From: an uncultured delta proteobacterium
Lineage (GTDB): Bacteria; Desulfobacterota; Binatia; UBA9968
Length of the DNA: 64,000 nt
Reading direction: 5' to 3'
NCBI GenBank assembly: GCA_963840855.1
Contig: CAWJBB010000068.1
Coordinates: forward strand, 1 to 64,000
Shown: positions 11,092-63,947 of the stretch, in pieces
Layout: each line of letters begins with the position of its first letter
Position numbering within the stretch: the stretch's first letter is position 1
Made by a program: the position numbers and the translations under genes
Notes under the pieces: generated by a model
The model's input: the letters and a program-made list of their open reading frames with translations, nothing else
The model's database searches: none
What the model was told of the DNA's origin: nothing

Positions 11092-11117
11092 GACTCTAAT
11101 AAACGAAGCCACTTCGC

Positions 11118-11203: not shown

Positions 11204-11216
11204 GGTATACATGGAG

Positions 11217-12290: not shown

Positions 12291-12325
12291 GGAACCTCCG
12301 ACAAGAACCCGCGCCCAGGCGCCGC

Positions 12326-14041: not shown

Positions 14042-14174
14042 AAAAATCTCCAAGAGCGAGGATTATTTTGTCGTAGCGACGCAGCGTCCGCTAACGGACG
14101 GCATCACCCGCGGATGATGCCGCGCCCTGCGTCGCGCCAACGGGAAACCGAACGACGTTCGGCGTCCAAAGCAA

Positions 14175-46467: not shown

Positions 46468-47443
46468 ATGATTAAGAAGATTTTTTTTATTACCGTCCTT
46501 TCGTTTTACTCGTTCAATTTTTCCGCCACGGCGCAGCCAGCAAAGCCATACCGCATCGGCGTTATTCTTCCCGGCGGACCGCTGCACGAGGCAATCGACG
46601 GGCTCAGGGACGGCCTCAGAGAGCTCGGCCTTGAAGAAGGCAAACAATTTGCACTGACGATTCGGGATACAAAGGGCGACGCCAAGGAGGGCGAAGCGGC
46701 GGCGAAGAATTTTGAGCAAGAGAAGGTGAGTTTGATATACGCGCTCAGCCACCTCTGTCACAACGGCGGCAAAGGGGGCGACTGCGAGTATCCCGATCGT
46801 ATTCGGCGTCGGCAGCGATCCGGTCGCCGGCGGGGTCATGGATAGTATTTGCGAAACCCGGCGGAAGGCTTACGGGCGTCCACTACCTGGTCACGGACCT
46901 TACGGCGAAGCGCCTTGAGATCCTGAAAGAGATTCTTCCGAAGCTCAGCCGCGTGGTGACGTTCTACAATCCGGGAAACCGTGTTGCCACAGAAGGCAGC
47001 TGAGTCGGGACGCGAGGAAGCAAAGCGGCTGGGGCTCAAGTTCATCGAGAGACACGTTCCCTCCGTCGAGGAACTTCGCGAAGGCGCTGCAGGCGCTCAA
47101 GACCGGCGAGGTAGATGCTTATTTCTATACCTCGGACGCGATGGTGACCAGCCAGGCTCAACTGATCATCGACACGGCGAAGGCCAAGAAGTTGGCGACG
47201 ATGTTCCACGAGCAAAGCCTCGTCACCAAGGGAGCCCTTGCCAGCTACGGCCAGAACTTCCATGAAATCGGCCGCGCGTCGGCGAAGTATGTGCAGCGGA
47301 TTCTGAACGGCGCCCATCCCCGTGATCTACGAATGGAGACCATTGAGAATATGGAACTGGCGATCAACCTTCAGACGGCAAAACAGCTGGGACTCACCAT
47401 CCCGCCGCAGGTGCTGGCGCGAGCGAAGAAGGTGATCAAGTAG
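46468..47443 (+). pseudogene. ABC_sub_bind (DUF534-type) SBP, multiply frameshifted
   Basis: RIGVI, GLRELG, DPV, GALASYG, INLQTAKQLGLTIPP in changing frames. Confidence 0.8.
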
Positions 47444-47536: not shown

Positions 47537-47643
47537 GAGCAACCAACGAACTTTGAGTTTGTAATCAATCTGAAAACGCCAAACAGATCGGCCTGACGAT
47601 TCCGCCGAATGTGTTGGCGCGAGCGGACAGGGTGATTCGATAG
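47537..47643 (+). pseudogene. isolated 3' end of an ABC_sub_bind gene
   Basis: EQPTNFEFVINLKT / KQIGLTIPPNVLARADRVIR*. Confidence 0.8.
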
Positions 47644-48392: not shown

Positions 48393-48429
48393 AAGTGGTA
48401 CAAAAGTCCATTCGTACCGAGTAGTCTGG

Positions 48430-48501
48430 AACAGATCGGCCTGACGATTCCGCCGAATGTGCTGGTGAGGGCGGATAGGGTGATTCGAATAGGCGTGAGG
48501 C
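48430..48501 (+). repeat. ~72-bp direct repeat right of the TA module (SBP 3' end)
   Basis: Encodes QIGLTIPPNVLVRADRVIR; matches 47582-47652. Confidence 0.85.
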
Positions 48502-48572: not shown

Positions 48573-49595
48573 TTGCACATCTTTTCCGCAGAATCTAAAA
48601 GCGGCAATCCAAAATCTAAAATGGGTGGCGATCTTCGCTATCGTCTCTCAGTCGCCATCGGTGGGGTGGCGGCCACGGCGCAGGAGCCGGCGAAGGTCTG
48701 GCGGATCGGTGTGCTGGTCTCAAGCTCTGCATCCTTGAATGCGTCCCGTGACGAAGCTCTCCGGCAAGGCTTACGCGAGATGGGTTATGTGGAGGGCAAG
48801 AACATCATCATGGAGTTCCGCTATGCCGACGGTAAACTGGATCGTCTTTCTGAGCTGGCCGCCGATCTGGTTCGCTCCAGGCCCGACCTTATCCTTGTCG
48901 GCGGCACCAGGGTGGCTGTTGCCGCCAAGCAAGCAACCGGCACAATCCCGATCGTCGTGGCGGGGGCCGGCGATCTTGTTGCGGCCGGAGTGGTTGACAA
49001 CCTCAACCGTCCCGGCGGCAACGTCACCGGGGTGTCCAGGCTTTCCCCGGAAATTCTCGGCACGCGAGTGGAGCTGCTCAAAGAAGTCATTCCAAAGGCC
49101 ACGCGCATAGCAACCCTCTTGAATCCTGAAAACCCTGGAAACGCGTCCAGTTTGAGAGAGATCGAGCTTGATGCGCTGGCGTGGGGAATGAGGCTCCAAG
49201 TGCTTGCTGCCCGCAGTCCCGATGACCTGGCAAGCGCCTTCAGAGCTGCGGTCAAGGAAAATTGCAGCGCTCTCATTGTCATGGTCGATGCCCTCTTCAG
49301 TAGCAACCGATCATCGATTGTCGAATTGGCGGTTAAGCATCGCCTGCCCGCGATCTATGACAGAGCCGAGTTTGCCGACGCTGGCGGACTGATTAGCTAT
49401 GGGATGAACTTGGCCGATCTGTCCCGGCGCGCCGCTTGGTATGTGGATCAGATTATAAAAGGCGCCAAGCCCGAGAAGTTGCCGCTAACGGAGCCGGCCA
49501 AGTTCGAGCTGATTATCAACCTCGAAGCCGCGAAGCAGATCGGCCTGACGATTCCGCCGAATGTGCTGGCAAGAGCAGACCGAGTGATCAGATGA
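48573..49595 (+). CDS. ABC_sub_bind (DUF534-type) SBP; start uncertain
   Basis: RIGVL, GYVEGKNI, RPGGNVTG, GGLISYG, QIGLTIPPNVLARAD. Confidence 0.88.
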   Translation: MHIFSAESKSGNPKSKMGGDLRYRLSVAIGGVAATAQEPAKVWRIGVLVSSSASLNASRDEALRQGLREMGYVEGKNIIMEFRYADGKLDRLSELAADLVRSRPDLILVGGTRVAVAAKQATGTIPIVVAGAGDLVAAGVVDNLNRPGGNVTGVSRLSPEILGTRVELLKEVIPKATRIATLLNPENPGNASSLREIELDALAWGMRLQVLAARSPDDLASAFRAAVKENCSALIVMVDALFSSNRSSIVELAVKHRLPAIYDRAEFADAGGLISYGMNLADLSRRAAWYVDQIIKGAKPEKLPLTEPAKFELIINLEAAKQIGLTIPPNVLARADRVIR

Positions 49596-49744: not shown

Positions 49745-52162
49745 TTGGGAATTTGGAGAAGTGAGCGAAAATTGAAATTTCGCGAATTACCCCTGATAAG
49801 ATTGTTTACCGGGCGCCAGCGGGCCCGTTTGATGCGCGACTATTTTCTTATCTCCGTGCTGCTGGTGGGCGGCGGGCTGACCGCCAGCGGACTGATCGAG
49901 ATCTACTTCCGTTATCAGGAGAGCCAACAGCATTTGGCTCATTTGCAGCGGGAAATCGCCGCCGGCGCGGCCGTCAAAATCGAACGTTTCGTGCAAGAGA
50001 TCCACAACACTCTTAAAGGAGCGACGCGGAGCCGGGAGATCGCGCCGAAGGGTCTAACCACGGAATTTCGCTTTGAGCTGGAAAAACTCCTGCTGATCGC
50101 GCCGGCAATAACGGAAGCTCTCGCGCTCAATCAGTCGGGCGCGATCCAAGTCCAGGCATCGCGGTTACGCACAGTGCTTCCCGAAATCAAGAAAGATCTT
50201 GCGATCTCGCCGGCGTTCCTCCACGCCAAACAAGGCAAATCTTTTTTCGGAACCGTTTACTTCGTGCGCGGCTCCGAACCTTACATGACCATCGCCGTGC
50301 CCATCGAGCGTTTCGCTGGCGACGTCATCGGCGTACTCCAAGCCGAAGTCAACCTCAAGTACATCGGCGATGTGGTCACCAATCTCACCATCGGCAAAGC
50401 CGGGTATGCCTATGTCATCAGCCGCAGCGGCGAACTCATCGCCCATCCCGATATCAGTCTCGTTCTTCAACGCCGTAACGTTTCCCTGCTCGAGTCCACT
50501 AAGGCGGCATTCAGCGGCAAAAGCGGCATTAGCAGCCAACACGCCCTTGTGACTCCCAACATCCAGGGTAAAAATGTTCTGAGTTCCTCCGCGCTCATCC
50601 CCGGTCTCGACTGGGCGATCATCGTCGATCGGCCGGTGGAAGAGGCGTACGAACCCGTCTATGCATCGATGCTCAGGACTTCGGGCCTGCTCCTAGTCGG
50701 CCTCGGCATGGCGCTGATCGCGAGCTTGTTCCTGGCCCGGCGAGTCGTCCGTCCGGTGCGGATTCTCCGCGAGGGCGTGGAGCGCATCGGCACCGGCGAC
50801 TTGAGTTACCGGCTCGATCTGAAGACCGGCGACGAGATCGAAGTCTTGGCCGACGAATTCAACAAAATGACTTCTCGGCTGCGAGAGTCCTACGCCAACT
50901 TGGAGCACAAGGTCGAAGACCGCACGCGCGAGTTGACGGAATCTTTGGCGCAACAAACGGCGACCAGCGAGATTCTCGGAATCATCGCGAGTTCACCGAC
51001 TGACCTTCAGCCGGTCTTGGATGCTCTGGCTGAAAGCGCCGCGAGACTATGCGATGCCAATAGCGCGCAAATTTATCGCGCCGACGGAAATACCCTGAGA
51101 CTGGCGGCCTACCATGGATCACTTCCGGCAACTGAAGAGATTCCGATTGTCCGAAGCTCGGTCGCGGGCCGCGTGTTTCTCGACCGTCGAACCATTCATA
51201 TTGAAGATCTGGCAGCAGAAGTCGAAACCGAATTTCCCGCCGCCAAGCAGGCGCAAGAACGCTTCGGGTATCGAACTTTGCTCGCCACACCGTTGTTGCG
51301 TGAAGGAATTGCCCTGGGTGTCATAGGGATCCGCCGAACCGAGGTGCGTCCTTTCACAGATAAACAAACAGCTCTGCTAAAAACTTTCGCCGACCAGGCG
51401 GTGATTGCCATTGAAAACGTTCGCCTGTTCCAAGAACTGGGCGAAAAAAACGAACAGCTGGAAGTCGCCAGCAAACACAAGTCGCAATTTCTCGCCAACG
51501 TCAGCCACGAGCTGCGCACGCCGCTCAATTCGATTATCGGTTTCACCAGGATCGTCCTGCGCCGGTCCGAAGGAAAGATCGACGTTTTGCAGAAAGAAAA
51601 TCTGCAAAAAGTTTTGATCAGCGCCGAGCATCTGCTCAACCTGATCAACGGTTTGCTCGACCTGGCCAAAATCGAAGCCGGGCGCATGGAAATCTACGCC
51701 GAGACATTCAAGCTGGAAGAAATCGTCCGCATCGCCACTGCAACGGTCGAACCCATGCTGAGAAACGGTAACGTGCGCTTGGTCACTGAAATTGCCGCCG
51801 ATCTACCCCTGATCAAAACCGACCGCGACAAGCTCAAACAGGTGGTCCTCAATCTGCTCAGCAACTCGGCGAAATTTACCGAGAAAGGCGAGATCAAAGT
51901 CGCCGCGTGGACAGTGAATGGGTCGATGAAGCTTGCGGTGTCGGACACCGGCATCGGCATGAACCACGACGCAATCAATTATATATTCGAAGAATTTCGC
52001 CAGGTCGATATGTCGACGACGCGCAAATACGGCGGCACGGGACTCGGCCTGGCCATCGTCAAACGGCTCACGAATCTGCTCGGCGGCGACATTGCTGTCG
52101 AGAGCGAAGAAGGAAAAGGGACGAAGTTCACCGTGACACTGCCGATGGAACTGAAAAGTTAG
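49745..52162 (+). CDS. sensor histidine kinase (TM-dCache-TM-HAMP-GAF-HisKA-HATPase)
   Basis: IAHPD Cache motif, GDEIEVLADEFNKM, FADQAVIAIEN, SHELRTPL, NLLSNSAKFT, GTGLGL. Confidence 0.95.
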   Translation: MGIWRSERKLKFRELPLIRLFTGRQRARLMRDYFLISVLLVGGGLTASGLIEIYFRYQESQQHLAHLQREIAAGAAVKIERFVQEIHNTLKGATRSREIAPKGLTTEFRFELEKLLLIAPAITEALALNQSGAIQVQASRLRTVLPEIKKDLAISPAFLHAKQGKSFFGTVYFVRGSEPYMTIAVPIERFAGDVIGVLQAEVNLKYIGDVVTNLTIGKAGYAYVISRSGELIAHPDISLVLQRRNVSLLESTKAAFSGKSGISSQHALVTPNIQGKNVLSSSALIPGLDWAIIVDRPVEEAYEPVYASMLRTSGLLLVGLGMALIASLFLARRVVRPVRILREGVERIGTGDLSYRLDLKTGDEIEVLADEFNKMTSRLRESYANLEHKVEDRTRELTESLAQQTATSEILGIIASSPTDLQPVLDALAESAARLCDANSAQIYRADGNTLRLAAYHGSLPATEEIPIVRSSVAGRVFLDRRTIHIEDLAAEVETEFPAAKQAQERFGYRTLLATPLLREGIALGVIGIRRTEVRPFTDKQTALLKTFADQAVIAIENVRLFQELGEKNEQLEVASKHKSQFLANVSHELRTPLNSIIGFTRIVLRRSEGKIDVLQKENLQKVLISAEHLLNLINGLLDLAKIEAGRMEIYAETFKLEEIVRIATATVEPMLRNGNVRLVTEIAADLPLIKTDRDKLKQVVLNLLSNSAKFTEKGEIKVAAWTVNGSMKLAVSDTGIGMNHDAINYIFEEFRQVDMSTTRKYGGTGLGLAIVKRLTNLLGGDIAVESEEGKGTKFTVTLPMELKS

Positions 52163-52265
52163 GGGTAAACAGTGAGGAGTGAAGCGAGAAGTAAGGGTGA
52201 GGCGAGATCCCCTGTCTTTCGCTTCTAAATCCAGACTCCTTGCCCAAACTGGAAAGGGAAGACCT

Positions 52266-52633
52266 ATGTCCAAAAAAAAAATCCTCGTAGTCGATGACAC
52301 CGATTTTAACCGCGATCTCGTCGTGCAGTTGTTGGAGGACGAGTACGACATGGTGATCGCGGAGAACGGCGAAGAGGCGCTGCAAAAGAGCGAAAGCGGA
52401 AAGACCGGATCTTGATCTTGATGGACCTCGGCATGCCGGTGATGGACGGCTGGGAAGCGACCAGAATATTGAAGGCCAATGACAATCTCAAGCACATTCC
52501 GATCATCGCCGTGACCTCCCACGCCATGGTCGGCGACGAGATCGACGCCCGCAAGGCCGGCTGCGATGATTATCTGCCGAAACCGATCGACGAAGACCTT
52601 CTGCTCAGAAAGATTAGGAAGTATCTCGGATAG
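52266..52633 (+). CDS. single-domain response regulator (DivK-like), frameshifted near 52390-52410
   Basis: KILVVDD ... ILMDLGMPVMDG ... AGCDDYLPKP across two ORFs. Confidence 0.85.
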
Positions 52634-52704
52634 TTTTGGATTTGCGTTTTGCGATACATGGATGGAGCCTATCTACACAACGCTTGGATTGGAGAAGAAA
52701 AACG

Positions 52705-53688
52705 ATGAATAGAAACGTTTGGGTTCTTCCACTGACTGTTTTTCTGTTGCTGATTGCTGCTATTTCAGGGGCGCAGCAAGCGGCCAAAGTATGGAAAATC
52801 GGCGTGCTGGTTTCGGGCAACAAGGCGTCGAACGCGATGCGCGATGACGCGTTGCGCGAGGGGTTGCGGCAACTAGGCTACGAGGAGAACAAGAACATCG
52901 TCTGGGAGTACCGCTACGCCGAAGGCAAAACGGATCGCTTGCCGCAACTCGCGCGCGAGCTGGTCGAGCAAAAACCCGACGTCATCGTCGTGGGTGGCAC
53001 CAGCGTCGCCGTCGCCGCGAAGAACGCCACCAGTGCGATTCCCATCGTCGTCGCCGGCGCCGGCGACTTGGTGGAAGCCGGCCTGGTCAAGAGTTTCATG
53101 TACCCGGGTGGCAATGTCACCGGCGTTTCGCGCATGTCTCCAGATTATTTTGGCGCGCGGCTCAAACTGATCAAGGAAATCATGCCCAAAACCGCGCAGG
53201 TCGCGGCCCTGGCGAATCCTAAGAATCCCGGTTACGCGCGCAGTATCAAGGATGCCGAGTTGGGCGCCCAATCCCTCGGCATGACTTTCCAGACGGTCAA
53301 CGCGCGCACGCCCGACGAGCTGGATAACGCCGTCGGCAGCGCCGGCAAGGGCGGCGCCACTGCGCTCTTCGTCATGACTGACGCAATGTTCAATAGTAAC
53401 GTCGCGCGACTCGCCAAGGCATCGATCAAGTACCGGCTCGCTGCCGTCTATGATCGCCCCGACTTCGTGGAGGCCGGCGGGCTATTGAGCTACGGCGTGA
53501 ACCTGGCCGATTTAAACCGGCGTGCCGCTGAATATGTGGATCAAATCTTCAAGGGCAAAAAGCCCGCTGATCTGACGCTGGTGGAACCGACGAAGTTTGA
53601 CTTGGCGGTCAACTTGAAAACGGCCCAACAGATCGGCATCACGATACCGCCTGAAGTAATAAACCGGGCGGGGAAAGTCGTTAGGTGA
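52705..53688 (+). CDS. ABC_sub_bind (DUF534-type) SBP
   Basis: Signal peptide; close paralog of 48573-49595. Confidence 0.9.
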   Translation: MNRNVWVLPLTVFLLLIAAISGAQQAAKVWKIGVLVSGNKASNAMRDDALREGLRQLGYEENKNIVWEYRYAEGKTDRLPQLARELVEQKPDVIVVGGTSVAVAAKNATSAIPIVVAGAGDLVEAGLVKSFMYPGGNVTGVSRMSPDYFGARLKLIKEIMPKTAQVAALANPKNPGYARSIKDAELGAQSLGMTFQTVNARTPDELDNAVGSAGKGGATALFVMTDAMFNSNVARLAKASIKYRLAAVYDRPDFVEAGGLLSYGVNLADLNRRAAEYVDQIFKGKKPADLTLVEPTKFDLAVNLKTAQQIGITIPPEVINRAGKVVR

Positions 53689-53711
53689 AGCGCAGGCGTG
53701 AGGGTGAAGTT

Positions 53712-54794
53712 ATGCCGAACAAAATCCTGATCGTCGACGACGAGCCGTTTAACCTCGATCTCCTGGAACAAGAGCTCATGGATTATGATTACGTGATCGA
53801 AAAAGCGGCCGACGGCGTAGAGGCGCTGGAGAAGATCGATAGCTTCGACCCCGACGTCATACTGCTCGACTATATGATGCCGAGGATGAACGGCTTGGAG
53901 GTTGTCCGGCGCCTTAGAGAGAACGAAAAGCATAAGAGTATCCCCGTCATTCTCTTGACCGCGAAAGCAAGCCAGGAGGATAAAATCGCCGGGCTCGACG
54001 CCGGAGCGGATGATTACGTCACCAAACCGTTCGACTCCTTCGAGTTGTTGGCGCGGGTGCGGGCGATGCTGCGCATTAAGCAGATGCACGATACTTTGGA
54101 AGAGTGGAACAGGACTCTCGCCGATAAAGTGAGCCAGCAAGTCACCGAACTGCAGCGCATGGAACGGCTCCGGCGTTATCTCTCGCCGCAGATCGCCGAG
54201 ACCATCTTGGGCAACGAAGCAGCCCTGTTCAAGACGCACCGGCGGGAAATCACCGTGGTCTTTCTCGACCTGCGCGGTTTCACGGCGTTTTCCGATAGCG
54301 CCGAACCCGAAGAGGTGATGGATTGTTTGCGTCACTATCACGCCGAAATGGGCAAGTTGGTTTTCAAATACGAAGGCACGTTGGAACGCTTCATGGGCGA
54401 TGGTATTGTCGTGATCTTCAACGACCCGATCCCGTGTGAAAACCATTCGCAAAAGGCCGCCCAGATGGCGATTGAAATGCGCAACCGAGTCAAAGAATTA
54501 CGCGTCGCGTGGCTCAAGATGGGTTATGATCTCGATCTGGGCGTGGGTTTGGCGAGCGGCTACGCGACGCTTGGAACAGTTGGTTTTGAAGGCCGAATGG
54601 ACTATGGAACGATAGGCAATCTACCCAACCTGGCCGCGCGGCTCTGCGCGGAAGCTCAAGGCGGCCAGATAGTGACGGATCAGAAGACCATGAGCAAGCT
54701 CGAAGAGCACATCGAAGCCGCAGCCCTTGAAGGGCTGCGCCTCAAGGGGATCAACCGCCCGGTTACGGCGTATAATCTGCTCAACACAAAGTAG
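53712..54794 (+). CDS. response regulator-class III adenylate/guanylate cyclase fusion
   Basis: REC domain; FLDLRGFT, FMGDG, DYGTIG, NLAARL. Confidence 0.93.
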   Translation: MPNKILIVDDEPFNLDLLEQELMDYDYVIEKAADGVEALEKIDSFDPDVILLDYMMPRMNGLEVVRRLRENEKHKSIPVILLTAKASQEDKIAGLDAGADDYVTKPFDSFELLARVRAMLRIKQMHDTLEEWNRTLADKVSQQVTELQRMERLRRYLSPQIAETILGNEAALFKTHRREITVVFLDLRGFTAFSDSAEPEEVMDCLRHYHAEMGKLVFKYEGTLERFMGDGIVVIFNDPIPCENHSQKAAQMAIEMRNRVKELRVAWLKMGYDLDLGVGLASGYATLGTVGFEGRMDYGTIGNLPNLAARLCAEAQGGQIVTDQKTMSKLEEHIEAAALEGLRLKGINRPVTAYNLLNTK

Positions 54795-54799
54795 CGGGG

Positions 54800-55732
54800 A
54801 TGAACCAAAACAATAGATCCGACGCGCGGCGGAGCGCATCATTCGTGGTGCGGTTCTGGGGCGTGCGCGGCAGTTATCCCGCCACCGATCCGGCGACTCG
54901 CGGAATCGGCGGCAATACCTCTTGTGTCGAGGTCGCGGTGGCCGGACAGCGCCTAATTTTCGACGCCGGAACAGGGATCATTCCTTTGGGCAAAGAGATT
55001 TGCAATGATTTTTCCGCGCGGCCCACCGCCTATGTCTTTTTGAGCCATACGCACATGGATCATATCATGGGACTTTGCTTCTTTGAGCCCCTCCTTACGG
55101 CCGGGGCGCGTTCGTTCATTTTCGGTCCGGGAAATTCCCGAGGAGCCTTGACTAGAAGTTTGCGGCAACTAACGCACAGCCACCTGTTCCCGGTAACCAT
55201 CGACGAGCTCAAAGGAAGAAAGGAAATTCACTCCCTTCAGGGCGGCGAGATCATTCGCTTTCCGTCACCCGGCAAAAGACCCACCATCGATAAGAATTCA
55301 CAATCGAATCGGCTCGACTCCGAGGAGCTTGAGATCACCGCCCTCAAGAGCGTGGCTCATCCGCGCTCCGGCGTGATGCTTTACCGGGTGAACTTCGGCG
55401 GGAAAAGTCTGGTGTACGCTACCGACGTCGAACAAAAGGAAGGCGGTTACCCTGAAATTATTGAATTCGCGCGGGGCGCTGATCTTCTGATCCATGACGC
55501 GCAGTACTTACACGACGAATATTTTTCCCAGAGTAAACCGAAAATGGGTTGGGGCCACAGCACCATCGAGATGGCCGCGGAGGTGGCCCGGAAGGCCGGC
55601 GTCCAGCGACTCGCGCTTTTTCACCACGAGCCGAGCCATGACGATAAAACCATGCGGGCTATTGAACGAGAAGGCAAACGGTTATTTCCACGATCGCTGA
55701 TCGCCCACGAGGGCATGAAATTATCATTGTAA
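54800..55732 (+). CDS. MBL-fold metallo-hydrolase (candidate cyclic phosphodiesterase)
   Basis: FWGVRGS, GGNTSC, DAGTG, SHTHMDH, HDAQY, WGHS, FHHEP. Confidence 0.88.
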   Translation: MNQNNRSDARRSASFVVRFWGVRGSYPATDPATRGIGGNTSCVEVAVAGQRLIFDAGTGIIPLGKEICNDFSARPTAYVFLSHTHMDHIMGLCFFEPLLTAGARSFIFGPGNSRGALTRSLRQLTHSHLFPVTIDELKGRKEIHSLQGGEIIRFPSPGKRPTIDKNSQSNRLDSEELEITALKSVAHPRSGVMLYRVNFGGKSLVYATDVEQKEGGYPEIIEFARGADLLIHDAQYLHDEYFSQSKPKMGWGHSTIEMAAEVARKAGVQRLALFHHEPSHDDKTMRAIEREGKRLFPRSLIAHEGMKLSL

Positions 55733-55739
55733 CAATCGC

Positions 55740-56726
55740 ATGGTAAACACCGTCACAGTGTTCACTGGAAATCTGCTCGCGATACTTTTCATGCTCGCTT
55801 GCGCGGCCTTCGAAGCCCAAGCACAAATGCACCGTATTGGCGTCTTGGTGCCCGAAATGGGCCGGGCGCAGTCCCAAGCGCAAAAAGGACTGATCGAGGA
55901 ACTGCAACAGTTAGGCTACCAACCACGGAAAAACGTCAGTTTTGAAATCCGCAATGCCAAGGGCAACCGAAATGCGCTTCAACCCGCGGCCAATGAACTC
56001 GCCGCGAGTAAAATCAATTTAATTTTTACCACCGGAACCAGAGCCACGCTGGCGGCAAGCGCGGCCACGCGCGATATTCCCATCGTTTTCGTTCATCCGG
56101 GCGACCCCATCGCGTTGGGTCTCTTGAAAGGTTCCGGAGAATCCAGAGGCAACGTCATGGGTGTCGCCGCCTTCGCGGCGCAAACGACGGACATCCGGCT
56201 CGCGCTTCTGAAAGAAATCTTTCCCGCGCTGCAAAAACTCCACATCTATTTTGACTCCAACAGCAGTTATGCAGCGGAGAATTTGGCTCTAGTGGAATCC
56301 GCCGCCAAAAAGCTGGCTCTACATGTCGTTAACCACGGCGTAAAATCAGTGGACGAGTTGAAAGCGAGCGTCAGCGCGACTCCGAGCGAGCAGGGCGCGG
56401 CAATTTTTCACATACCGGATGACCTGGTTGAAAGCGAGGTGGATTTCATCTTTGAAACGGCGCGGCAAAAGAAACTGCCGACGATGTTCAACGAGGAGGC
56501 TTGGGCCATCGCCGGGGCGATGGCCGCCCACGGGCCCAACTATTTTCAGATGGGCCGCCAGGCCGGCCGTCTCGCGGACGGAATTCTCAAAGGACAAACG
56601 CGCGGTTCCGTGCCGGTCCAGCGTGCCGCTAAATTCGATCTGACGCTCAATTATCGGACGGCCAACATTATCGGATTGCGCCTTTCTCAGGAGATCTTGA
56701 AAAAAGCCGACAAGGTCATTCGCTGA
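55740..56726 (+). CDS. ABC_sub_bind (DUF534-type) SBP
   Basis: RIGVL, IPIVF, DP, GRQAG, KKADKVIR. Confidence 0.88.
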   Translation: MVNTVTVFTGNLLAILFMLACAAFEAQAQMHRIGVLVPEMGRAQSQAQKGLIEELQQLGYQPRKNVSFEIRNAKGNRNALQPAANELAASKINLIFTTGTRATLAASAATRDIPIVFVHPGDPIALGLLKGSGESRGNVMGVAAFAAQTTDIRLALLKEIFPALQKLHIYFDSNSSYAAENLALVESAAKKLALHVVNHGVKSVDELKASVSATPSEQGAAIFHIPDDLVESEVDFIFETARQKKLPTMFNEEAWAIAGAMAAHGPNYFQMGRQAGRLADGILKGQTRGSVPVQRAAKFDLTLNYRTANIIGLRLSQEILKKADKVIR

Positions 56727-56738
56727 CCGAGCCAACTC

Positions 56739-59405
56739 ATGGAGCCCGTCGCCGATACCATCAGAACCATTCCCATATTCTCCGGGCTTTCCCGCGAGGA
56801 TACCGCGAAGGTTCTCGGCAAAATGGAAGAGACTTCGTTTGCCGCCGGGACAACGATTGTTTCCCAAGGCGATCAGGGCGATGCGTTTTATCTGATTCAG
56901 TCCGGCGCGGTGCAGGTGATGTTGGAAAGCGACGCCGGCAAGTCGGAAGTCATCGCGGTGCTCGGGGCGAAGGACTGGTTCGGAGAAATGGCGCTGTTTA
57001 CCGGCGAGCCACGTTCAGCGACGATCTTGGCGGTAAAGCCGACGATTCTCTGGCGCCTCAACCGCGAGGCCTGGGATGATCTCATCGACAAACATCCGAC
57101 CTGGCTCTTGCAGCTCTGCGCGACCCTGAGCAAACGACTGTCTCACCTGGATCGGCAATATTCCACGGGACGCGAAGCATTCAACTCGTTGGCGGGAGAG
57201 TTCTACAGCTCGCGGCCGCCCGAGCAGCAACAGTTTTTCCGCCGCGCCTGTCTGCTGAGCGATATCGACAGTTCCACGGTAGAGCGGTTACTCGGCACGG
57301 CCGGGGCGAAATCATACCTGGCGGATCTCGAAAAGAACCGGTTCCGTCTGGTCCGCCGTCTGGACGGAACAAAATACGAGCTGCACAGCTACTTCAAAGA
57401 TTTCCTGCGGGAAAAGCTGCTCGAAACCGATGGCAAAGAAACCAAACTCAAGCTCGACCGGCAAATCAGCGCCGAGTATGCGGCGCTGGGCGATTGGCGG
57501 CAAGCGGTTTACCATTTGTTGGAAGCCGGCGACTCGCCCAAAGCGGCCGAGCTTCTGATTGCGCAAAAGGAGCCGTTGCTGAGCGACGCTGTTGGGTTTG
57601 TCAAGGCGGCCATCGACTCCTTGCCCAGGGATCAACTTTATTCCGACCCGCGCCTGGTTCACTTGCACGCGACGGCGCTGGCCCAACTGGGCGACCCGGC
57701 GGGAGCCGTGCGCATTTACAGAGAAGTTCTTTCTCAACGATCTCGAGAAATTGCCGGGGCCGAGGCCATCACTCGCCATATCCGCATGGCGGAAACTCTG
57801 GCGCGGCGAAAGGAATTTGGCCAGGCGCTTAGCGTTTTGCGCAGTGCCCTCGACATGGCCGGTCATGAGAGCGTGACATCGTCCGGCGACGTCTCGAGAC
57901 TTTACCTCGACGCGAACCATCAGACGGCGACAAACCCGTTGGGCGCAGCTGGGGTCGTGGCATCGCCGTTCCGTTACCGGCTAGGAAAATATTCCGGCTC
58001 AGTCGAAATAGGATCGGTCAGCAAATGGTTCGGCGCCATTCTCGGCTTGGGCCTATGGGGATATCTCTGGTTTGGCAAACCAGACATCGGCCTTGATGAC
58101 AGCGGCACGAAACTACTCGGATTGTTGTCCCTAACGTTGATCTATTGGGTTTTCTGGGTGTTGCCCGATTACGGTGTAGCGTTCATCTTCGCCCTGGGAC
58201 TGATACTTACCGGATTGGCATCGGGGGAAACCGTCCTGGGAGGCTTCGCCAGCACCACTTGGTTTATGACCCTGGGTGTGCTCGGCCTGGGAGCGGCGAT
58301 CACCGGCTCAGGTCTATTTTATCGCCTCTCCCTGCACCTGGTGCGGTTTTTCCCTTTGAGTTTTTATTGGCAGGTCGTCGGCATGGGCCTCATGGGCGTC
58401 GTCGTCATGGCATTGATCCCGCAACAGACCGCAAGAACAGTCGTCATCAGCCAGATGCTGGTGAACCTTTCCGAGAGCCTTGGCTATAAAACCCCTTCCA
58501 GGGCATCCACCGGTTTGTTCGCCGCAAGTTTTCTTGGACTGGGCCAGCTCGGTTTTCTTTTTCTTACGGGTTCCACCACCAGTTTGATCGCCTGGGGCCT
58601 GCTGCCCGCGGATGTGCGCAGCCAACTCACCTGGGGATATTGGTTTCTCGCCGCCCTTCCGCCCGCATCGATCGTCCTCATCATGGTGCTGGCCGCCATC
58701 GTTCTTATCTTCCGGCCCGAGTCGGAGCCGAAGATTTCTTATAAAATGGTGCAAACCCAACTGGATGTTCTGGGGCCGCTGTCCGCCAAGGAATGGATCA
58801 GTCTGGGAGTGCTCTGCTTCACAGTTACAGGGTGGCTTACGGTCTCTTATCACGGCATCGACGGCGCTTGGATCGCGTTGATTGCCTTTTGCGTTTTGGT
58901 CAATACCGGTGTCTTGGGCTGGCAAAATTTGAAAAAGGCGATTGATTGGGAATTACTCCTCTATATGGGCGTAACGTTGAGCATCCCCACGCTCTTAACT
59001 CAGGCCAGAATCGACCAATGGCTGGTGGAACTGATGACTCCGGCAATCGAACCTTTTATGAATCATCCCGCTTCGTTTTTCCTCGTTATCGCCCTGCTTA
59101 CCTACGCGCTCAAATTGTTCTTTACTAGTTTCCTTACCGTGGTAACGCTCTCCGTCGCGTTGGTGCCATTGTCGGTCGATGTCGGCATGAGTCCCTGGAT
59201 CATCGCCATGATCATTCTGATGGCATCGGAAGTCTGGTTTTTCCCGTTTCAGGTGGACTGGCACACGATGGCGTACTCCACCACCGAGAAAAAAGGTTTC
59301 AGCTATCCGCTCATGTGCCGCGTCAATCCCATCTACGCCCTCGCCTACATCACCGCCCTCATCGCAGCGATCCCGTATTGGAGATACCTCGGCCTGATGG
59401 ACTAG
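56739..59405 (+). CDS. cNMP-binding + MalT-like winged-helix/TPR + DASS (SLC13) transporter fusion
   Basis: FGEMAL-x4-RSAT; YELHSYFKDFL; AVYHLLEAGD; GFAS-x2-W, SGL-x2-RL, IP-x2-TAR, FLTG, IPYW. Confidence 0.85.
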   Translation: MEPVADTIRTIPIFSGLSREDTAKVLGKMEETSFAAGTTIVSQGDQGDAFYLIQSGAVQVMLESDAGKSEVIAVLGAKDWFGEMALFTGEPRSATILAVKPTILWRLNREAWDDLIDKHPTWLLQLCATLSKRLSHLDRQYSTGREAFNSLAGEFYSSRPPEQQQFFRRACLLSDIDSSTVERLLGTAGAKSYLADLEKNRFRLVRRLDGTKYELHSYFKDFLREKLLETDGKETKLKLDRQISAEYAALGDWRQAVYHLLEAGDSPKAAELLIAQKEPLLSDAVGFVKAAIDSLPRDQLYSDPRLVHLHATALAQLGDPAGAVRIYREVLSQRSREIAGAEAITRHIRMAETLARRKEFGQALSVLRSALDMAGHESVTSSGDVSRLYLDANHQTATNPLGAAGVVASPFRYRLGKYSGSVEIGSVSKWFGAILGLGLWGYLWFGKPDIGLDDSGTKLLGLLSLTLIYWVFWVLPDYGVAFIFALGLILTGLASGETVLGGFASTTWFMTLGVLGLGAAITGSGLFYRLSLHLVRFFPLSFYWQVVGMGLMGVVVMALIPQQTARTVVISQMLVNLSESLGYKTPSRASTGLFAASFLGLGQLGFLFLTGSTTSLIAWGLLPADVRSQLTWGYWFLAALPPASIVLIMVLAAIVLIFRPESEPKISYKMVQTQLDVLGPLSAKEWISLGVLCFTVTGWLTVSYHGIDGAWIALIAFCVLVNTGVLGWQNLKKAIDWELLLYMGVTLSIPTLLTQARIDQWLVELMTPAIEPFMNHPASFFLVIALLTYALKLFFTSFLTVVTLSVALVPLSVDVGMSPWIIAMIILMASEVWFFPFQVDWHTMAYSTTEKKGFSYPLMCRVNPIYALAYITALIAAIPYWRYLGLMD

Positions 59406-59525
59406 GCGCGACCGGAATACGCGCCCGTTCCCGAGGGATAAACTCTTTCGTTGTTCGCGCTCGTAGTTCGACCGTTTGACTTTGCTCACGACCCTCAGAC
59501 TTGATCAAGCTGCCAAGCAAAGACT

Positions 59526-61346
59526 CTACTTGTGGCGTTGCACGTAGGGCTCCATCGTCGCTTCCACAGCAGTGTCTTCTTCGCGGTAGAACGCCGCTGA
59601 AGTGTAAACCAGGAGTGGCGCTTCTCGGCCTTGCACCTTGACTCGTTGTAACGGCTTCAACGGCACCCCCTCCGGTAGTTCTGCGGCGGTAAACTCGCTG
59701 ATGAGCATCGGCACCCCCATCTCTTTTGTGAGCGCTTCAAGCCGGGAAGCGAGATTGACAACATCGCCAATCGCTGTGAAATCGGAGCGCAGCTCAGATC
59801 CAATACTTCCCACTACCGCATCTCCGGAGTTGATGCCGACGCCGATCTTTAAAGCCCGGCCCATAAGCTCCGCCCATTTGGGGTCGAGGTTTTCCACCAT
59901 TTCGACCATTTCGAGACCTGTCTTTACGGCTCTCAGGGCGTCATCGCCGTGAGATTTGGGCGATCCGAATACCGCCATCATCCCGTCGCCGATAAATTTG
60001 TCCACCGTCCCACCATGCTTGAAGACGATCTCGGTAGTTTTCGCAAAGTATTCACTGAGGAACGACACGACCTGTTCAGGCTCGATTTGCTCCGAAATGC
60101 TGGTAAAGCCTCGGACATCCGAGAAAAGCACGGTAATATGCCGGCGCTTGCCACCGAGCGCGAGACCTTCGCGGTCTTCCAAAATCTCTTCGACGATATC
60201 GCGGGAAACGTATCTGCTGAATTGCGCGCGGTAACGAAGGCGTTCTCTTTGCTCCCTGACATAATTATTCAGAGTCAATCCGCCATGGCTCAGCACGATT
60301 CCGAGGAGCGCCGGTGTCATGGGAAGCCAGAGCCGGTACTTTGAAAAAGCGATTATGCAACCCAAGACGAACAACGCGGCCAAGGCGATTACGACGGCGA
60401 AAGCCTTGACGGGTTTGAGCTGGATCGATGGCCAGATAGTAAACCCGCATAACAGGATAAAAATGAGCGCATGTTGCCAATCCGCGAGAGGGATAATTGG
60501 ATTGCCGGCGTAGAACGTTTCAATCAAGTTGGCCTGGATCTCCACTCCAGCCATCGGCTGGGTGGCGGAAAAAGGCGTGCCAAAAACATCGTGCAGGCTG
60601 GGCGCGAAGGAGCCTATGAGAACGATCTTATCGCGAAACACGGCAGGGTCGATTTCATCCCGCAAGATTCGGTAGTAGGGCACGGTTGGATAGGTGCGCG
60701 GCGGGCCGCGAAAATTGATCAAGAGTGGCTCCAGACCGATCGTCATGTCCGGCGTCCTTTTGGATGTCATCGCCGCTTGCTGTATCAGATGAGCAAAGCT
60801 AGGGTAGACCTTATCTTGAAAGGACAACGCAGGCCGAGCGCTGCGAACAAGGCCGTCTTGGTCGGTGACCAGATTCACCGGACCGTAGCCGAGCGCGTCC
60901 TCGCGAATCAAAGGAATCGGCAGGTTCATGGTCTTTTTGGGCCCGAAGTCACTCGCCACTTCGGTGAGCTCGCAGGCAAGAACTACGTTGCCGGCTTGTT
61001 TGATCGCTGCCGCGAGCTCGCGGTCCTCGCGCGGATCGGATTTGGGCTCCGTGAACAAAATATCGAGACCGATTATCCGGGCCTGGCTGCTTGAAAGCTT
61101 TCTGACCAGTGTGGCGTGAAGGTCGCGCGGCCATGGCCATGGTAAGTTGAGTTCGTCGAAAGAGTCCTGATCGATGCTCACAACCACAATGGGCGCTTCG
61201 GGGAGCATCGTTCCGCGCATTTGGAATCGCAGGTCCAGGCTGTGCAGCTCGATTTTAGCCAACAAACCAAGCTGGTAAGCGGTATAAATCAGCCCGGCCA
61301 GGCTCACTCCGATGATTACCGGCAGAAAATGCGCTTTAAGTTTCAT
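59526..61346 (-). CDS. CHASE2-domain adenylate cyclase
   Basis: WPWPR, GLDILF, DQDG-x2-R, GVEIQAN, 3 TM, FSDVRGFT, DKFIGDG, NLASRLE. Confidence 0.94.
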   Translation of the reverse strand: MKLKAHFLPVIIGVSLAGLIYTAYQLGLLAKIELHSLDLRFQMRGTMLPEAPIVVVSIDQDSFDELNLPWPWPRDLHATLVRKLSSSQARIIGLDILFTEPKSDPREDRELAAAIKQAGNVVLACELTEVASDFGPKKTMNLPIPLIREDALGYGPVNLVTDQDGLVRSARPALSFQDKVYPSFAHLIQQAAMTSKRTPDMTIGLEPLLINFRGPPRTYPTVPYYRILRDEIDPAVFRDKIVLIGSFAPSLHDVFGTPFSATQPMAGVEIQANLIETFYAGNPIIPLADWQHALIFILLCGFTIWPSIQLKPVKAFAVVIALAALFVLGCIIAFSKYRLWLPMTPALLGIVLSHGGLTLNNYVREQRERLRYRAQFSRYVSRDIVEEILEDREGLALGGKRRHITVLFSDVRGFTSISEQIEPEQVVSFLSEYFAKTTEIVFKHGGTVDKFIGDGMMAVFGSPKSHGDDALRAVKTGLEMVEMVENLDPKWAELMGRALKIGVGINSGDAVVGSIGSELRSDFTAIGDVVNLASRLEALTKEMGVPMLISEFTAAELPEGVPLKPLQRVKVQGREAPLLVYTSAAFYREEDTAVEATMEPYVQRHK

Positions 61347-61720
61347 GGGGCTCTGGTGGATCCGTGCAATCAGCGCTAAGCGACTGTTGATAGTCTGTCC
61401 TGTCGCATAATTCAATGCCCCTTCCAGTCAGATAAACTGGATTGACAGGTGAATCAATAACTCCTTGGCACTTGTTGGCGGTTTACGATTTCTCGTTAAC
61501 CCCAACTCGGTTGAACGCGCGCCTGTTTCTATTTCCCGGACGAATCCGGCGCTCTTCTATGCGCCCTGCGATGAACGACAAAACCTCGTAGTGGGTCCGA
61601 CCAAATTTGTCTACGCTTCCGCTCATCAGTATCTTTACCGGGTTCGTATTCCCTCCCTTATGACCCCAGGAGTCACCAATAGTGAAGCCCTTTCTTAACG
61701 CCCTACTTTACGCCACCGAT

Positions 61721-61736
61721 TGGCATGCTTACTGCA
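61721..61736 (+). promoter_or_regulatory. sigma-54 promoter candidate
   Basis: TGGCATGCTTACTGCA with correct GG/GC spacing, 55 bp before the ATG at 61791. Confidence 0.55.
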
Positions 61737-61790
61737 CCTGCGCCGGGGAACATTCAATCCCTGAGCCGGCGTCAACGCCGGTGTGGCGAC

Positions 61791-62243
61791 ATGAAAACTT
61801 TACCGAAGACAATTTTTGTCAGTCTGCTGTTTCTTACCTCATGTTCCACAGGTATGGTGGGTTCCTCATCGACGCTCCGAGCGGATCCGGAAATTTTTTG
61901 GGTGGGCGAATTAGAGGTTAGGCTCTATCAAGATCGCGAAAAAATGACTCGCGAGCTGCCGCCGTCCTTGGCGTTGCCAGGCGCCTTGAGGATAGGCGGC
62001 AAGCAGCTCCAAATTTTCGGCTACTATGACGAACAAAACAAACGGATTTTTTCAGTAAATGACGCCCGCGTTCTGCTGCACGAAATTAAGCATTATTTGG
62101 AACCGCATTGGCGGCATGAAATTGGCGCTAACTACCTCGATGCGTTGGGGCAGGGTATCCAATCCGCCTGTGTCGATTGTGCCGCTCCGACGCCAGAGAA
62201 GAGCTCGGTAGTCAATCCCATCCTCGTCGGCCAATCCCGTTAA
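61791..62243 (+). CDS. lipoprotein with HExxH motif
   Basis: Lipobox FLTSC, GYYD, LLHEIKH, C-terminal CVDC. Confidence 0.7.
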   Translation: MKTLPKTIFVSLLFLTSCSTGMVGSSSTLRADPEIFWVGELEVRLYQDREKMTRELPPSLALPGALRIGGKQLQIFGYYDEQNKRIFSVNDARVLLHEIKHYLEPHWRHEIGANYLDALGQGIQSACVDCAAPTPEKSSVVNPILVGQSR

Positions 62244-62293: not shown

Positions 62294-63947
62294 TTAGAAC
62301 CGCCACGCCACACTCGTCGTGACCACATGCCGCTTGTATTGGAATGCGGCCAAGTTCGATTGGTTTCTATCGTAGAGATACTCCAGCGCAACGTTGAGTG
62401 AGCAACTGCCGTTCGCGCCGCAAAAGGAAGAAGATTTCAAAAAGTCGGGAACGAAGTCTCTGGCGATGCCTATCTGATGGACCGGTTCTCGGTCTCGCCG
62501 CTTCACCGTGTTGGGCGCAGTTGCCGGCTGCAGACTATTTTTATTCCGATAGAAACGCCAGTGGAAATCGAGATCGTAACGTAAGCGGAGTTCCCACCAC
62601 GGCAAGCTGTATTGAAAGCCCGTCACGAGACGCTGGCCCTGATAACTCCAGTTGTCTCCCTCAGCGAACTCCGCATCGAACTGGTAGCCTAGCCTGGCGA
62701 AGTGCCGCCCCCCGTCAAAAAGCAGGACGTGAGCCAGACCCATCATATAGTTATTGGCATCGCGGACTTCACTGCGCACGACCCTGTCATCGTCATAGAA
62801 ATCCTTCCACTGAAATGTATATTGCAAGGTAGTTATGTTCCCTGCATTGGCCGCTAGGGTCAAATATGAGCTGACGATGCCGCGCTGGGTAAACGGGGCA
62901 TTACCCAATGAAATAAAATCGTACGTGACCTGGAGGCCGGCCTCATAAGGCAGCGCGCCAAAAGCGCTCTGCGTCGCGCCGCGCCGCGCGATGCTTAAGG
63001 TCGGGGTATGACTTTGCGTGTTAAACTCGGTCAGGTGATTGTAATAGGATTGCAGAAACCTGTAGGAGATATCTCCCTCCCAGTCGGGGTTCTTCAGCCA
63101 TGTATAGCCGAGATTGACAGTGGCTAATTCGCCTTCGCTCTTGCGCCGTGGATTAGTTTCCCGGATGACTCGTCGTCGTAATGTCGCTGTTCGGATCGGG
63201 AACCACGGGCACGTTAGTGTCGTAATACACTCCCAGCCGCAGCTCGCCGCGGAAAAATTTTTCTTCACTCTCCGCCTTCTGCAGGATTTCCCCGAAGCGC
63301 TGCAACGGCGCCACCAGAGGAGATACCGGCTGAAGACGCAGAGCCTGATCAATCTCGGCTCGCGCCTCGCCGGCATAGCCGAGGGCGGCAACCGCCAAGC
63401 CGGTATAAAAATGCGCGAGCTGCGCGAAATTATCGTCGCTGGGGACATTGGCCCTAAGGAGGGTCAGGGCATCGCGGTAATTTTTTTTACGGTACTCGAT
63501 GAAGCCGAGATAATAGCCGATGTTGGGGCGGCGGGGGTCAGCCTGATACGCCTGGCGAAGCAGGGGTTCCGCCTGTTCATACTCTTTCTGCGCAAAATGC
63601 AAGACCCCCAGCTGGAACGCGACGTCCGCATCGGCGGGTTGGATCGCTCTGGCCTTTTCGAGCGCTGCGCGGGCATCACCGGGCCGATCCAGAGCGCTAT
63701 AAACAAGGCCCTGATAATAGAGAGCGTCGACGCTCTGCGGATTCAAACGGAGCGCCTCCTGCAACTCCTTCAAGGCCGCATCATATCGCTTCTCGTTGTA
63801 AGCAAGAACCGCCCGATCGACGAAAACCGCTGCCTCGAGTTCCCCGGATTTCGGCGCTTGAGCGCCGGCAGTAGAAGGCGGAAAAATACTTAACAACCCA
63901 AACAGTACGGCAACCAGGACTTTTAGAGCGAAGAAGCGACACGCCAT
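62294..63947 (-). CDS. TPR + outer-membrane beta-barrel protein, frameshifted near 63165
   Basis: Signal peptide, TPRs, YYDTNV barrel start, amphipathic strands, terminal VAWRF. Confidence 0.82.

Follow-up and report, generated by a model that had tools for sequence, protein, structure and literature searches.

The window analysed here is a stretch of 64,000 nucleotides (nt) from an uncultured delta proteobacterium (contig CAWJBB010000068.1 of assembly GCA_963840855.1), and its central gene encodes a protein, hereafter the carrier, in which a cyclic-nucleotide-binding domain (CNBD), a MalT-type winged-helix/TPR arm and a DASS-fold membrane domain are joined in one chain. An earlier note, made from the letters of this DNA alone, had described an intact open reading frame (ORF) of 888 residues with this triple architecture, and both points are borne out: the ORF begins with ATG and runs without an internal stop, and all three parts are recovered by profile, sequence and fold matches (Table 1). 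The carrier gene closes a compact row formed by the genes for a binding protein (SBP1), a receiver-cyclase, an MBL-fold hydrolase, a second binding protein (SBP2) and the carrier itself, which are separated by −4, 5, 7 and 12 nt, respectively.

Table 1. The carrier gene, its parts and the genes around it, in positions of the window.
Feature	Residues	Position	Strand	Basis or remarks
Carrier ORF P0001 (CNBD + MalT-type winged helix/TPR arm + DASS-fold carrier)	888 in total	56739..59405	+	ATG start, no internal stop
CNBD	1-145	56739..57173	+	Pfam match 32-119
Phosphate-binding cassette FGEMALFTGEPRSATILA	81-98	56979..57032	+	
Long continuous helix after the CNBD	120-157	57096..57209	+	Secondary structure of model
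MalT/STAND-type winged-helix domain and start of arm	149-312	57183..57674	+	MalT PRK04841, 8bob, 8bob_C, 6mfv
TPR-like helical repeats	about 233-378	57435..57872	+	Helix pairs in both models
Poorly conserved, low-confidence linker from cytoplasmic module to first membrane helix	375-424	57861..58010	+	pLDDT <50
DASS/SLC13-fold membrane domain	431-888	58029..59402	+	Profiles, sequence and fold matches
First hairpin-tip motif IPQQTAR	560-566	58416..58436	+	
Second hairpin-tip region FFTSFLTVVTLS	794-805	59118..59153	+	
dCache-HAMP-GAF histidine kinase		49745..52162	+	Profile match; co-occurs in related loci
PF04392 binding protein SBP1		52636..53688	+	Overlaps cyclase gene start by 4 nt
Receiver domain + class III nucleotide cyclase		53685..54794	+	Best match P. 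aeruginosa CyaB 3r5g, 9.3e-36
MBL-fold hydrolase, candidate cyclic-nucleotide phosphodiesterase		54800..55732	+	Lactamase_B_2
SBP2, periplasmic PF04392 (TrpX-like) binding protein		55740..56726	+	E 2.4e-50; stop 12 nt before carrier start
CHASE2 membrane sensor + class III cyclase		59526..61415	-	Convergent with carrier gene

The N-terminal part of the carrier is a CNBD, to which Pfam PF00027 (cNMP_binding) matches at residues 32-119 with an E-value of 2.8e-25 (88.6 bits against a cut-off of 27.5), and its sequence matches are the PKA regulatory subunit (1.1e-28), PKG, the CRP family and the SthK channel (E 1.3e-12). In the model of this domain, strands occupy residues 30-108 and helices follow; the NCBIfam CRP model spans residues 23-141 only. 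The complete phosphate-binding cassette (GE ... RSA) that the earlier note had read is indeed present at residues 81-98, where G82, E83, A85, R92, S93 and A94 agree with the pattern G-E-x-A ... R-[ST]-A, and it is near-invariant among the 38 full-length homologues of our first alignment (A1, 24-91% identity to the query): the six residues are kept in 32-38 of them, with G82 and E83 in all 38, R92 in 37, S93 in 34 and A94 in 35. Judged by these sequence features, the domain is predicted to bind a cyclic nucleotide, cAMP most likely and cGMP less likely. CNB domains with ligands other than cyclic nucleotides have precedents, as described in parts of PMC2246266 and PMC10959531, and the N-terminal fold might likewise bind another ligand, or nothing at all, and serve mainly in dimerisation. 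This is very improbable for the carrier, because the cassette is canonical (G-E...R-S/T-A in 34-38 of the 38 homologues), the top sequence matches are the cAMP- and cGMP-binding domains of PKA, PKG and CRP, and cyclase genes adjoin the carrier gene.

The segment that follows had been described in the earlier note as the winged helix and TPR sensor of a MalT-type regulator without its ATPase, a claim that would have fallen if the region were not MalT-like by hidden Markov model (HMM). The NCBIfam MalT model PRK04841 does match, residues 149-312 aligning to MalT positions 253-417 of 903 with an E-value of 5.9e-13; the match is partial and hence lies far below the full-length cut-off of 537. Solved MalT (8bob) matches residues of about 164-305 by sequence (E 3.4e-5), and PF25873, a MalT winged-helix domain, is precomputed on homologues of the carrier. 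When residues 140-380 were modelled separately from 36 sequences (pLDDT 91.6, pTM 0.85), the best fold match in the PDB was again MalT (8bob_C; E 2.7e-4, root-mean-square deviation (rmsd) of 2.9 A over 162 columns), the second significant match was the STAND-TPR protein 6mfv (E 9.6e-4), and TPR proteins and Apaf-1 came lower. Several Pfam TPR families match around residues 305-374, all under their cut-offs, and at E≤1 neither Pfam nor NCBIfam yields an ATPase family (P-loop NTPase of the NB-ARC, NACHT or MalT type) in this protein. Because model, fold and sequence all match MalT, the middle region is a MalT-type STAND winged-helix domain with the start of its arm, followed by TPR-like helix pairs, and the CNBD occupies the place where the STAND ATPase would be. 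A search with the middle region alone gave 106 matches, 102 of which are the carrier family itself; four PF25873 proteins make up the rest, among them a BTAD-PF25873-cyclase and a LuxR MalT-type regulator. Membership of the STAND ATPases themselves was rejected, since the carrier contains no NTPase, its residues 1-145 are a CNBD and its C-terminal part is a DASS domain rather than a LuxR-type helix-turn-helix (HTH).

The succession of CNBD and winged helix raises the question of a membrane-tethered CRP-like transcription factor, in which these two parts would bind DNA and the carrier domain would serve as an anchor. In its favour, 228-243 columns of the full model can be aligned with CRP-family structures (4ev0, TM-score 0.59, target-normalised). 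However, the superposition of the N-terminal part on CRP-family structures in the PDB is loose (TM-scores of 0.54-0.59, target-normalised, at an rmsd of 10-12 A), the winged helix matches the non-DNA-binding winged-helix domain of MalT by HMM and not the HTH of CRP, and no HTH family, LuxR-type or other, is found in the carrier at E≤1 in Pfam or NCBIfam. CRP-like DNA binding was therefore dropped as the leading interpretation, and we regard it as exceedingly unlikely.

The C-terminal half has the fold of a DASS carrier. Pfam PF00939 (Na_sulph_symp) matches residues 449-886 with 113.9 bits, where the cut-off is 27, and an E-value of 1.2e-32, and comparison with Foldseek aligns the membrane domain end to end with AtDiT2.1 (TM-score 0.84, E 2.5e-15), VcINDY (6ol0, 0.85), NaCT (0.81) and yeast Pho90 (8r35, 0.76), all scores being target-normalised, at sequence identities to solved DASS members of 15-21%. 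The scaffold and transport domains with two re-entrant hairpins are both recovered, in a part of the model whose pLDDT is mostly 75-92. Structure prediction, which had been proposed as a check on the earlier note, thus returns the DASS membrane fold as well as the MalT-like middle.

The earlier note had read two altered DASS signatures, IPQQTAR and FLTGSTTS, and its reading holds for the first of these. IPQQTAR lies at the tip of the first hairpin, where the HMMER alignment places it opposite PSTTAR of DiT2.1, whereas FLTGSTTS (608-615), which aligns to FLTAAAQN of DiT2.1, is not the second signature; this is found at residues 794-805, where S-N-V, the second such motif of VcINDY, aligns to T800-V801-V802. 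HMMER sets the first SNT motif of VcINDY two residues beyond, against A565-R566-T567, so that a direct line-up of IPQQTAR with this motif is our own reading and not the placement by HMMER. The Asn of the SNT motifs binds sodium and substrate. In the carrier, Q562-Q563-T564 and T800-V801-V802 stand at or near these positions, and the 38 homologues have no conserved Asn in any column at either hairpin tip; P561 is invariant, and position 566 is always Arg (27 sequences) or Lys (11 sequences). Because both SNT Asn are missing and the first tip carries an invariant basic residue, two-sodium coupling of the VcINDY type is improbable, and the carrier is not counted among the VcINDY-type sodium symporters. 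From these sequences, coupling probably does not follow the VcINDY scheme and, by analogy, may resemble that of the DiT-type exchangers, which are the closest solved relatives and a better functional analogy than VcINDY.

Conservation was compared along the chain in a second alignment (A2) of 16 closer sequences. Across its 15 homologues, which are 54-91% identical to the query, mean identity is 0.75 in the CNBD, 0.62 in the winged helix, 0.52 in the TPR region, 0.22 in the linker and 0.81 in the DASS domain. By this measure, every part of the carrier is under constraint apart from the linker. The full-length model made from the 38 homologues (mean pLDDT 80.6, pTM 0.60) is of low confidence only at residues 334-337 and 375-424. 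In the model, the long helix of residues 120-157 leads out of the CNBD and is likely to be its signal-carrying C-helix.

Sequence searches indicate that the triple architecture is common and not a one-off. A word-indexed search gave at least 549 relatives at E≤1e-3 among 8000 scored candidates; among the 120 matches listed, all are 884-897 residues long, are 65-91% identical to the query at 100% query coverage, and carry precomputed PF25873, PF00939, PF03600 and PF00027. When 50%-identity representatives were searched exhaustively, 622 proteins scored at E≤1e-30, and the forms of the family were surveyed by scoring the three parts of the query against the best 150 of these. Among those 150 are relatives with all three parts, the most distant at about 26% identity, many CNBD + DASS proteins of 610-670 residues with a short linker only, proteins of 740-1040 residues with an undetected middle, and DASS-only proteins of 440-520 residues. 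Of two CNBD + DASS clusters in the Atlas, one has 144 members, with Candidatus Binatota as the most frequent phylum, and the other 228, with Candidatus Methylomirabilota in that place. The family occurs mainly in metagenome-assembled genomes of Candidatus Binatia, with the shorter CNBD-DASS relatives in other phyla. One relative of 1380 residues (P0186) has a CstA carbon-starvation transporter part joined to CNBD + DASS, and another (P0156) has a weak DctM match (E 4.3e-4, below the cut-off).

The family is already present in databases, unrecognised, under generic names, the listed relatives being called only 'anion transporter' or 'SLC13 family permease'. In the literature searched, no description of a CNBD-DASS fusion was found by title or abstract; the words symporter, permease and sulfate do not occur in the portion seen of the main text of a census of CNB domains (PMC2246266), and a review, in the section available, lists CNBD fusions only for MFS carriers, with function uncharacterised (PMC10710835).

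The carrier gene is surrounded by genes for making, and probably breaking, cyclic nucleotides. The dCache histidine kinase is likely to be the upstream sensor of the receiver-cyclase, and the MBL-fold protein may, from its sequence, be a phosphodiesterase. The convergent CHASE2 cyclase has the motifs DKFIGD and DFTAIG, with a Lys/Thr pair as in the adenylate cyclase CyaB (3r5g), and the receiver-cyclase has ERFMGD and DYGTIG, with an unusual Arg/Gly pair; we take these to be the substrate-specifying positions of class III cyclases. A scan of positions 52000-62000 for promoters and terminators gave numbers at the level of shuffled sequence (6 promoters against 4.4, 12 terminators against 12.4) and gives no indication of where the operon begins or ends.

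Conservation of this gene row was examined with A2 as alignment query in one genome per species, which returned 65 loci, nearly all in metagenome-assembled genomes that bear the titles Candidatus Binatia, 'Deltaproteobacteria' or Syntrophobacter-like; L001, at 94% identity, is the closest. The neighbouring proteins of the window were scored against the ORFs of every locus. An SBP2-type gene lies directly upstream of the carrier gene on the same strand in 41 of the 53 loci that have at least 1100 nt of upstream sequence, and anywhere in the locus in 46 of 65; in two loci (L054 and L055) it is convergent and downstream. The stop of the SBP2 gene is followed by the carrier start after a median of 12 nt; among 44 such pairs, 37 are at most 30 nt apart. 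A maximum-likelihood tree was made of 42 intact carriers whose upstream sequence is long enough. In 36 of them the binding protein is adjacent, two to three changes account for its absence, and adjacency holds across deep branches. An MBL gene is found at most 3 kb upstream in 21 of 51 loci, the receiver-cyclase in 15 of 44, the CHASE2-type cyclase in 11 of 45, and the full colinear row of receiver-cyclase, MBL, SBP2 and carrier in 12 of 44. Where both flanks are long enough (32 loci), at least one cyclase is present in 18 and a cyclase or MBL gene in 23. Two paralogous carriers share a contig (L015 and L034), only one of them with an adjacent binding protein, and in four loci (L004, L028, L043 and L052) the carrier gene is split into two ORFs, by frameshift, assembly error or decay.

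The most conserved partner of the carrier, the periplasmic binding-protein gene directly upstream, had been missed in the earlier note. SBP2 has a hydrophobic, signal-like N-terminal segment and is related to TrpX-type proteins and to the solved structures 6hni, 3lkv and 3lft; the three solved PF04392 proteins bind Trp, Tyr and Phe, according to part of PMC10443332. The window contains three intact PF04392 genes (48573-49595, 52636-53688 and 55740-56726), clustered with signalling genes. A fourth copy (46498-47440) is broken into two frames at about 46740, and remnants of 20-22 residues at 47572-47637 and 48429-48488, which lie in the otherwise unassigned stretch of 46.2-48.5 kb, are 90-95% identical to the C-terminal end of the protein encoded at 48573-49595, which suggests decay or rearrangement of duplicated binding-protein genes. 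An ABC importer was considered for the PF04392 proteins and rejected, because no cognate permease or ATPase gene lies within the 64-kb window; its sole ABC_tran match stands between an LptA-type gene and the sigma-54 gene, in a row for lipopolysaccharide transport, and we read it as LptB.

Binding proteins are also found fused to relatives of the carrier. In two proteins of another CNBD-DASS subfamily (P0183, 1005 residues, and P0272, 1009 residues, the latter named from Desulfoscipio gibsoniae), a C-terminal Peripla_BP_6 domain follows the last membrane helix. DASS proteins have the N-terminus inside and the C-terminus outside, and we therefore assume that the fused domain is periplasmic, although some proteins of Peripla_BP_6-type fold are cytoplasmic. 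Two further proteins of about 560 residues (P0273 and P0274) have CNBD and Peripla_BP_6 Pfam domains and no DASS domain, and may represent either fragments or another architecture. Seven CNBD + DASS proteins of about 640 residues (P0278, P0286, P0301, P0305, P0306, P0309 and P0312), with no binding-protein domain in their Pfam lists, carry in one source the name 'branched-chain amino acid transport system substrate-binding protein', which was probably transferred from the fused form. A predicted complex of DASS residues 431-888 with mature SBP2 (29-328) scored 0.00 twice, without controls, and counts neither way.

From the gene linkage and the fusions, SBP2 probably captures the substrate and delivers it to the carrier, by analogy with other binding-protein-dependent carriers. 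Binding proteins that stimulate receptors have also been described (in parts of the reviews PMC10443332 and PMC9602780), and SBP2 and its paralogues could instead act as co-sensors of the dCache kinase or of the CHASE2 cyclase that merely share an operon with a gated carrier independent of them. The three intact and one broken PF04392 genes stand beside kinase and cyclase genes, extra copies like SBP1 or like the protein encoded at 48573-49595 (SBP0) adjoin kinase genes in related loci, and some carriers (12 of 53 loci) occur without SBP2. However, the SBP2 gene is tied to the carrier gene (41 of 53 loci, at the short spacing given above) more often than to a cyclase (18 of 32) or the kinase, and fused CNBD-DASS-binding-protein relatives exist. 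We consider the co-sensor role unlikely.

Taken together, the carrier is probably a cyclic-nucleotide-gated, DASS-type elevator carrier, a reading that we hold with some confidence and well short of certainty. Its domains and their folds, the conserved nucleotide-binding residues and the linkage of the genes are observed, whereas binding of a nucleotide and which one it is, the sign of the regulation, transport, the substrate and the use of SBP2 are predictions. The earlier note had proposed a cyclic-nucleotide-regulated transporter or transceptor. Its regulatory half gains support because the cassette is conserved and the gene is clustered with two class III cyclases and an MBL-fold hydrolase; these observations do not divide a transporter from a transceptor. 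In the proposed mechanism, the dCache histidine kinase and the CHASE2 cyclase would sense a periplasmic signal, perhaps together with the additional PF04392 proteins; the kinase would phosphorylate the receiver-cyclase, and the cyclic nucleotide would rise. The nucleotide, likeliest cAMP, would bind the N-terminal CNBD, and the change would run along the long C-helix (120-157) into the MalT-type winged-helix/TPR module. Held by a flexible tether of 50 residues, this module would dock on or release the cytoplasmic face of the transport domain, so that the elevator is blocked or allowed. Because the tether is flexible and unconserved, such a docking and undocking (autoinhibitory) mode appears more plausible than a rigid lever. 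The MBL-fold hydrolase would remove the cyclic nucleotide and reset the signal, and SBP2 would probably pass the substrate on to the carrier, in the manner of TRAP, TTT and the proposed TAXI-GltS systems. The composite proposal, a DASS-based, binding-protein-dependent transporter licensed from inside by a cyclic nucleotide through the CNBD and the STAND-type winged-helix/TPR switch, is tentative, and we hold it to be rather less probable than not in its entirety.

Several observations weigh against this interpretation. The DASS domain could have lost transport, since its score in the NCBIfam DASS model TIGR00785 (126.1 bits) is below the cut-off of 198.6 and both SNT Asn are missing. No rigid path from sensor to carrier is visible, because the linker is unconserved and modelled without confidence. 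The unusual Arg/Gly pair in the receiver-cyclase makes cAMP less certain as the messenger. RNase Z models score above NF041851 ('cyclic nucleotide-degrading phosphodiesterase', E 5.4e-12) for the MBL protein, and all of them are far below their cut-offs. No cyclase is present in 14 of the 32 loci with both flanks, and MBL is likewise missing from many loci. The cyclase linkage is argued from colinear, tight spacing and not from a statistic against genome background. The upstream binding-protein gene is absent in 12 of 53 loci, the fusion occurs in only 2 of 69 matches and with a Pfam family other than PF04392, and the PF04392 proteins may serve sensing and not transport, given their three intact copies and one broken copy near signalling genes. 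Biochemistry of any family member was not found in the literature searched.

Some of these points would suit a transceptor or scaffold, in which a non-transporting DASS-like domain senses a ligand or loaded SBP2 and the TPR module recruits partners, for example the cyclase or hydrolase; its role would be to hold together a complex for local signalling by cyclic nucleotides. Besides the missing SNT Asn and the low NCBIfam score, TPR modules are commonly protein-binding and TPR proteins dominate the lower fold matches, the carrier gene is embedded among signalling genes, and several PF04392 paralogues occur in 64 kb that hold no ABC permease or ATPase for them. Nevertheless, the membrane domain is the most conserved part of the protein (0.81) and retains the DASS fold over its whole length, SNT is missing as well from Na+-independent DASS exchangers, DiT2.1 among them, and no output domain is present besides the carrier. 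A transceptor or scaffold is thus distinctly unlikely, if less so than a CNBD that binds another ligand, and a gated carrier is the preferred interpretation.

Several further features of the window were observed around this locus. A single-domain response-regulator (REC) gene between the histidine kinase and SBP1 (52272-52630) is split over two reading frames, 52272-52397 and 52382-52630, which reflects a frameshift or else an error of sequencing. Its identity to an intact REC gene of 121 residues (L003:3332-3694) is 84-90%, and many related loci have an intact small REC gene in this position. The gene for a sigma-54-dependent NtrC-type response regulator (44838-46181) lies 10 kb upstream of the carrier gene, in L014, L016, L029, L033 and L062 such a regulator is directly downstream of the carrier gene, and sigma-54 itself is encoded in the window (19309-20781). 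Downstream of the CHASE2 cyclase are two ORFs with no Pfam match (61725-62243, 172 residues, and 62294-63448, 384 residues) and a TPR protein (63153-63947); in L012, L042 and L045, too, the CHASE2-type cyclase is followed by long TPR proteins. Farther away, duplicated DUF7700 proteins (870-1280 and 6996-7406) and duplicated Asp/Glu/hydantoin racemase-family proteins (5876-6646 and 29166-29936) sit among amidase, amidohydrolase and solute-binding genes. Positions 10804-14050 on the reverse strand hold a nitrile-hydratase-like alpha gene (356 residues, with an N-terminal extension of 150 residues), a short C-terminal fragment of the beta subunit, and an adjoining gene for a 574-residue protein with a partial asparaginase match only.

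Among known systems, the carrier joins two kinds, namely carriers with a fused sensor and elevator carriers linked to a binding protein. It shares the whole membrane fold (TM-score 0.84-0.85) with the DASS/SLC13 carriers (VcINDY, LaINDY, NaCT, NaDC and NaS1, with AtDiT2.1 and AtDiT1 as the closest solved members) and its first hairpin tip resembles that of AtDiT2.1 (PSTTAR in DiT2.1, PQQTAR in the carrier), but it has about 430 additional N-terminal cytoplasmic residues and neither SNT Asn. The earlier note had taken it as established that a cytoplasmic module for regulation is absent from characterised DASS carriers, which goes too far. In yeast Pho90, Pho87 and Pho91, an N-terminal cytoplasmic sensor of a small molecule is likewise fused to a DASS-fold phosphate carrier and regulates it, and according to the available part of a review, transport by Pho90 and Pho91 is regulated by their N-terminal SPX domains (PMC12653687). 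Therefore, an N-terminal sensor can control the DASS fold, although these yeast proteins differ from the carrier in that the sensor is SPX and not a CNBD, they are eukaryotic, and they have neither a MalT-like module nor a binding-protein partner.

A CNBD fused to a membrane transport domain is also found in channels of the SthK/MloK1 type and in CNBD-MFS fusions. These are channels or MFS carriers with a mostly C-terminal CNBD, whereas the present protein is of the elevator type, with an N-terminal CNBD and an interposed STAND-type module. This module is like the winged helix and arm start of MalT/STAND regulators by HMM, sequence and fold, and lacks their P-loop ATPase, long sensor superhelix and LuxR DNA-binding domain; with a CNBD replacing the ATPase, it constitutes a natural experiment on how STAND winged-helix/arm modules relay a nucleotide signal. 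In CRP/FNR regulators, a CNBD is likewise followed by a long helix and a winged-helix fold, but the winged helix of the carrier is of MalT type, HTH_Crp does not match, and the protein is integral to the membrane. Apart from CRP-type regulators, not many bacterial cAMP or cGMP effectors are understood. A DASS carrier with a conserved canonical CNBD, encoded beside enzymes that make, and probably break, cyclic nucleotides, makes the control of solute uptake by a second messenger testable in a concrete and widespread case. Post-translational control of bacterial carriers by fused domains is widespread and largely untested, according to part of a review (PMC10710835).

The second likeness is to TRAP, TTT and the proposed TAXI-GltS systems, in which an elevator carrier is also accompanied by a tightly linked binding-protein gene and fused forms occur in relatives. 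The carrier is not a member of these systems, because its membrane part is DASS by profile and fold, not DctM, TctA or GltS; its binding protein is PF04392 rather than DctP, TAXI or TctC, a small subunit of the Q/B type is lacking, and the carrier has a cytoplasmic second-messenger module in addition. As far as the available portion of PMC12344293 (Jaques et al.) goes, TAXI-GltS was proposed because its genes are linked and translationally coupled and fusions occur, the binding-protein-dependent secondary transporters known until then were TRAP and TTT alone, and DASS is mentioned only as a fold relative of TRAP. The binding-protein partner of the carrier is argued here on the same grounds of linkage, coupling and fusions. 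If the tentative proposal above were correct, the carrier would be the first binding-protein-dependent secondary system, after TRAP, TTT and the proposed TAXI-GltS, to be gated from the cell interior by a cyclic nucleotide, and uptake of a scavenged nutrient would be licensed by a cAMP pulse driven by a two-component system. In the same portion of their text, Jaques et al. ask why binding proteins pair only with secondary carriers of the elevator type, and note that further classes would allow this elevator-only idea to be tested (PMC12344293); the link of the carrier to SBP2 and its fused relatives bear on this question.

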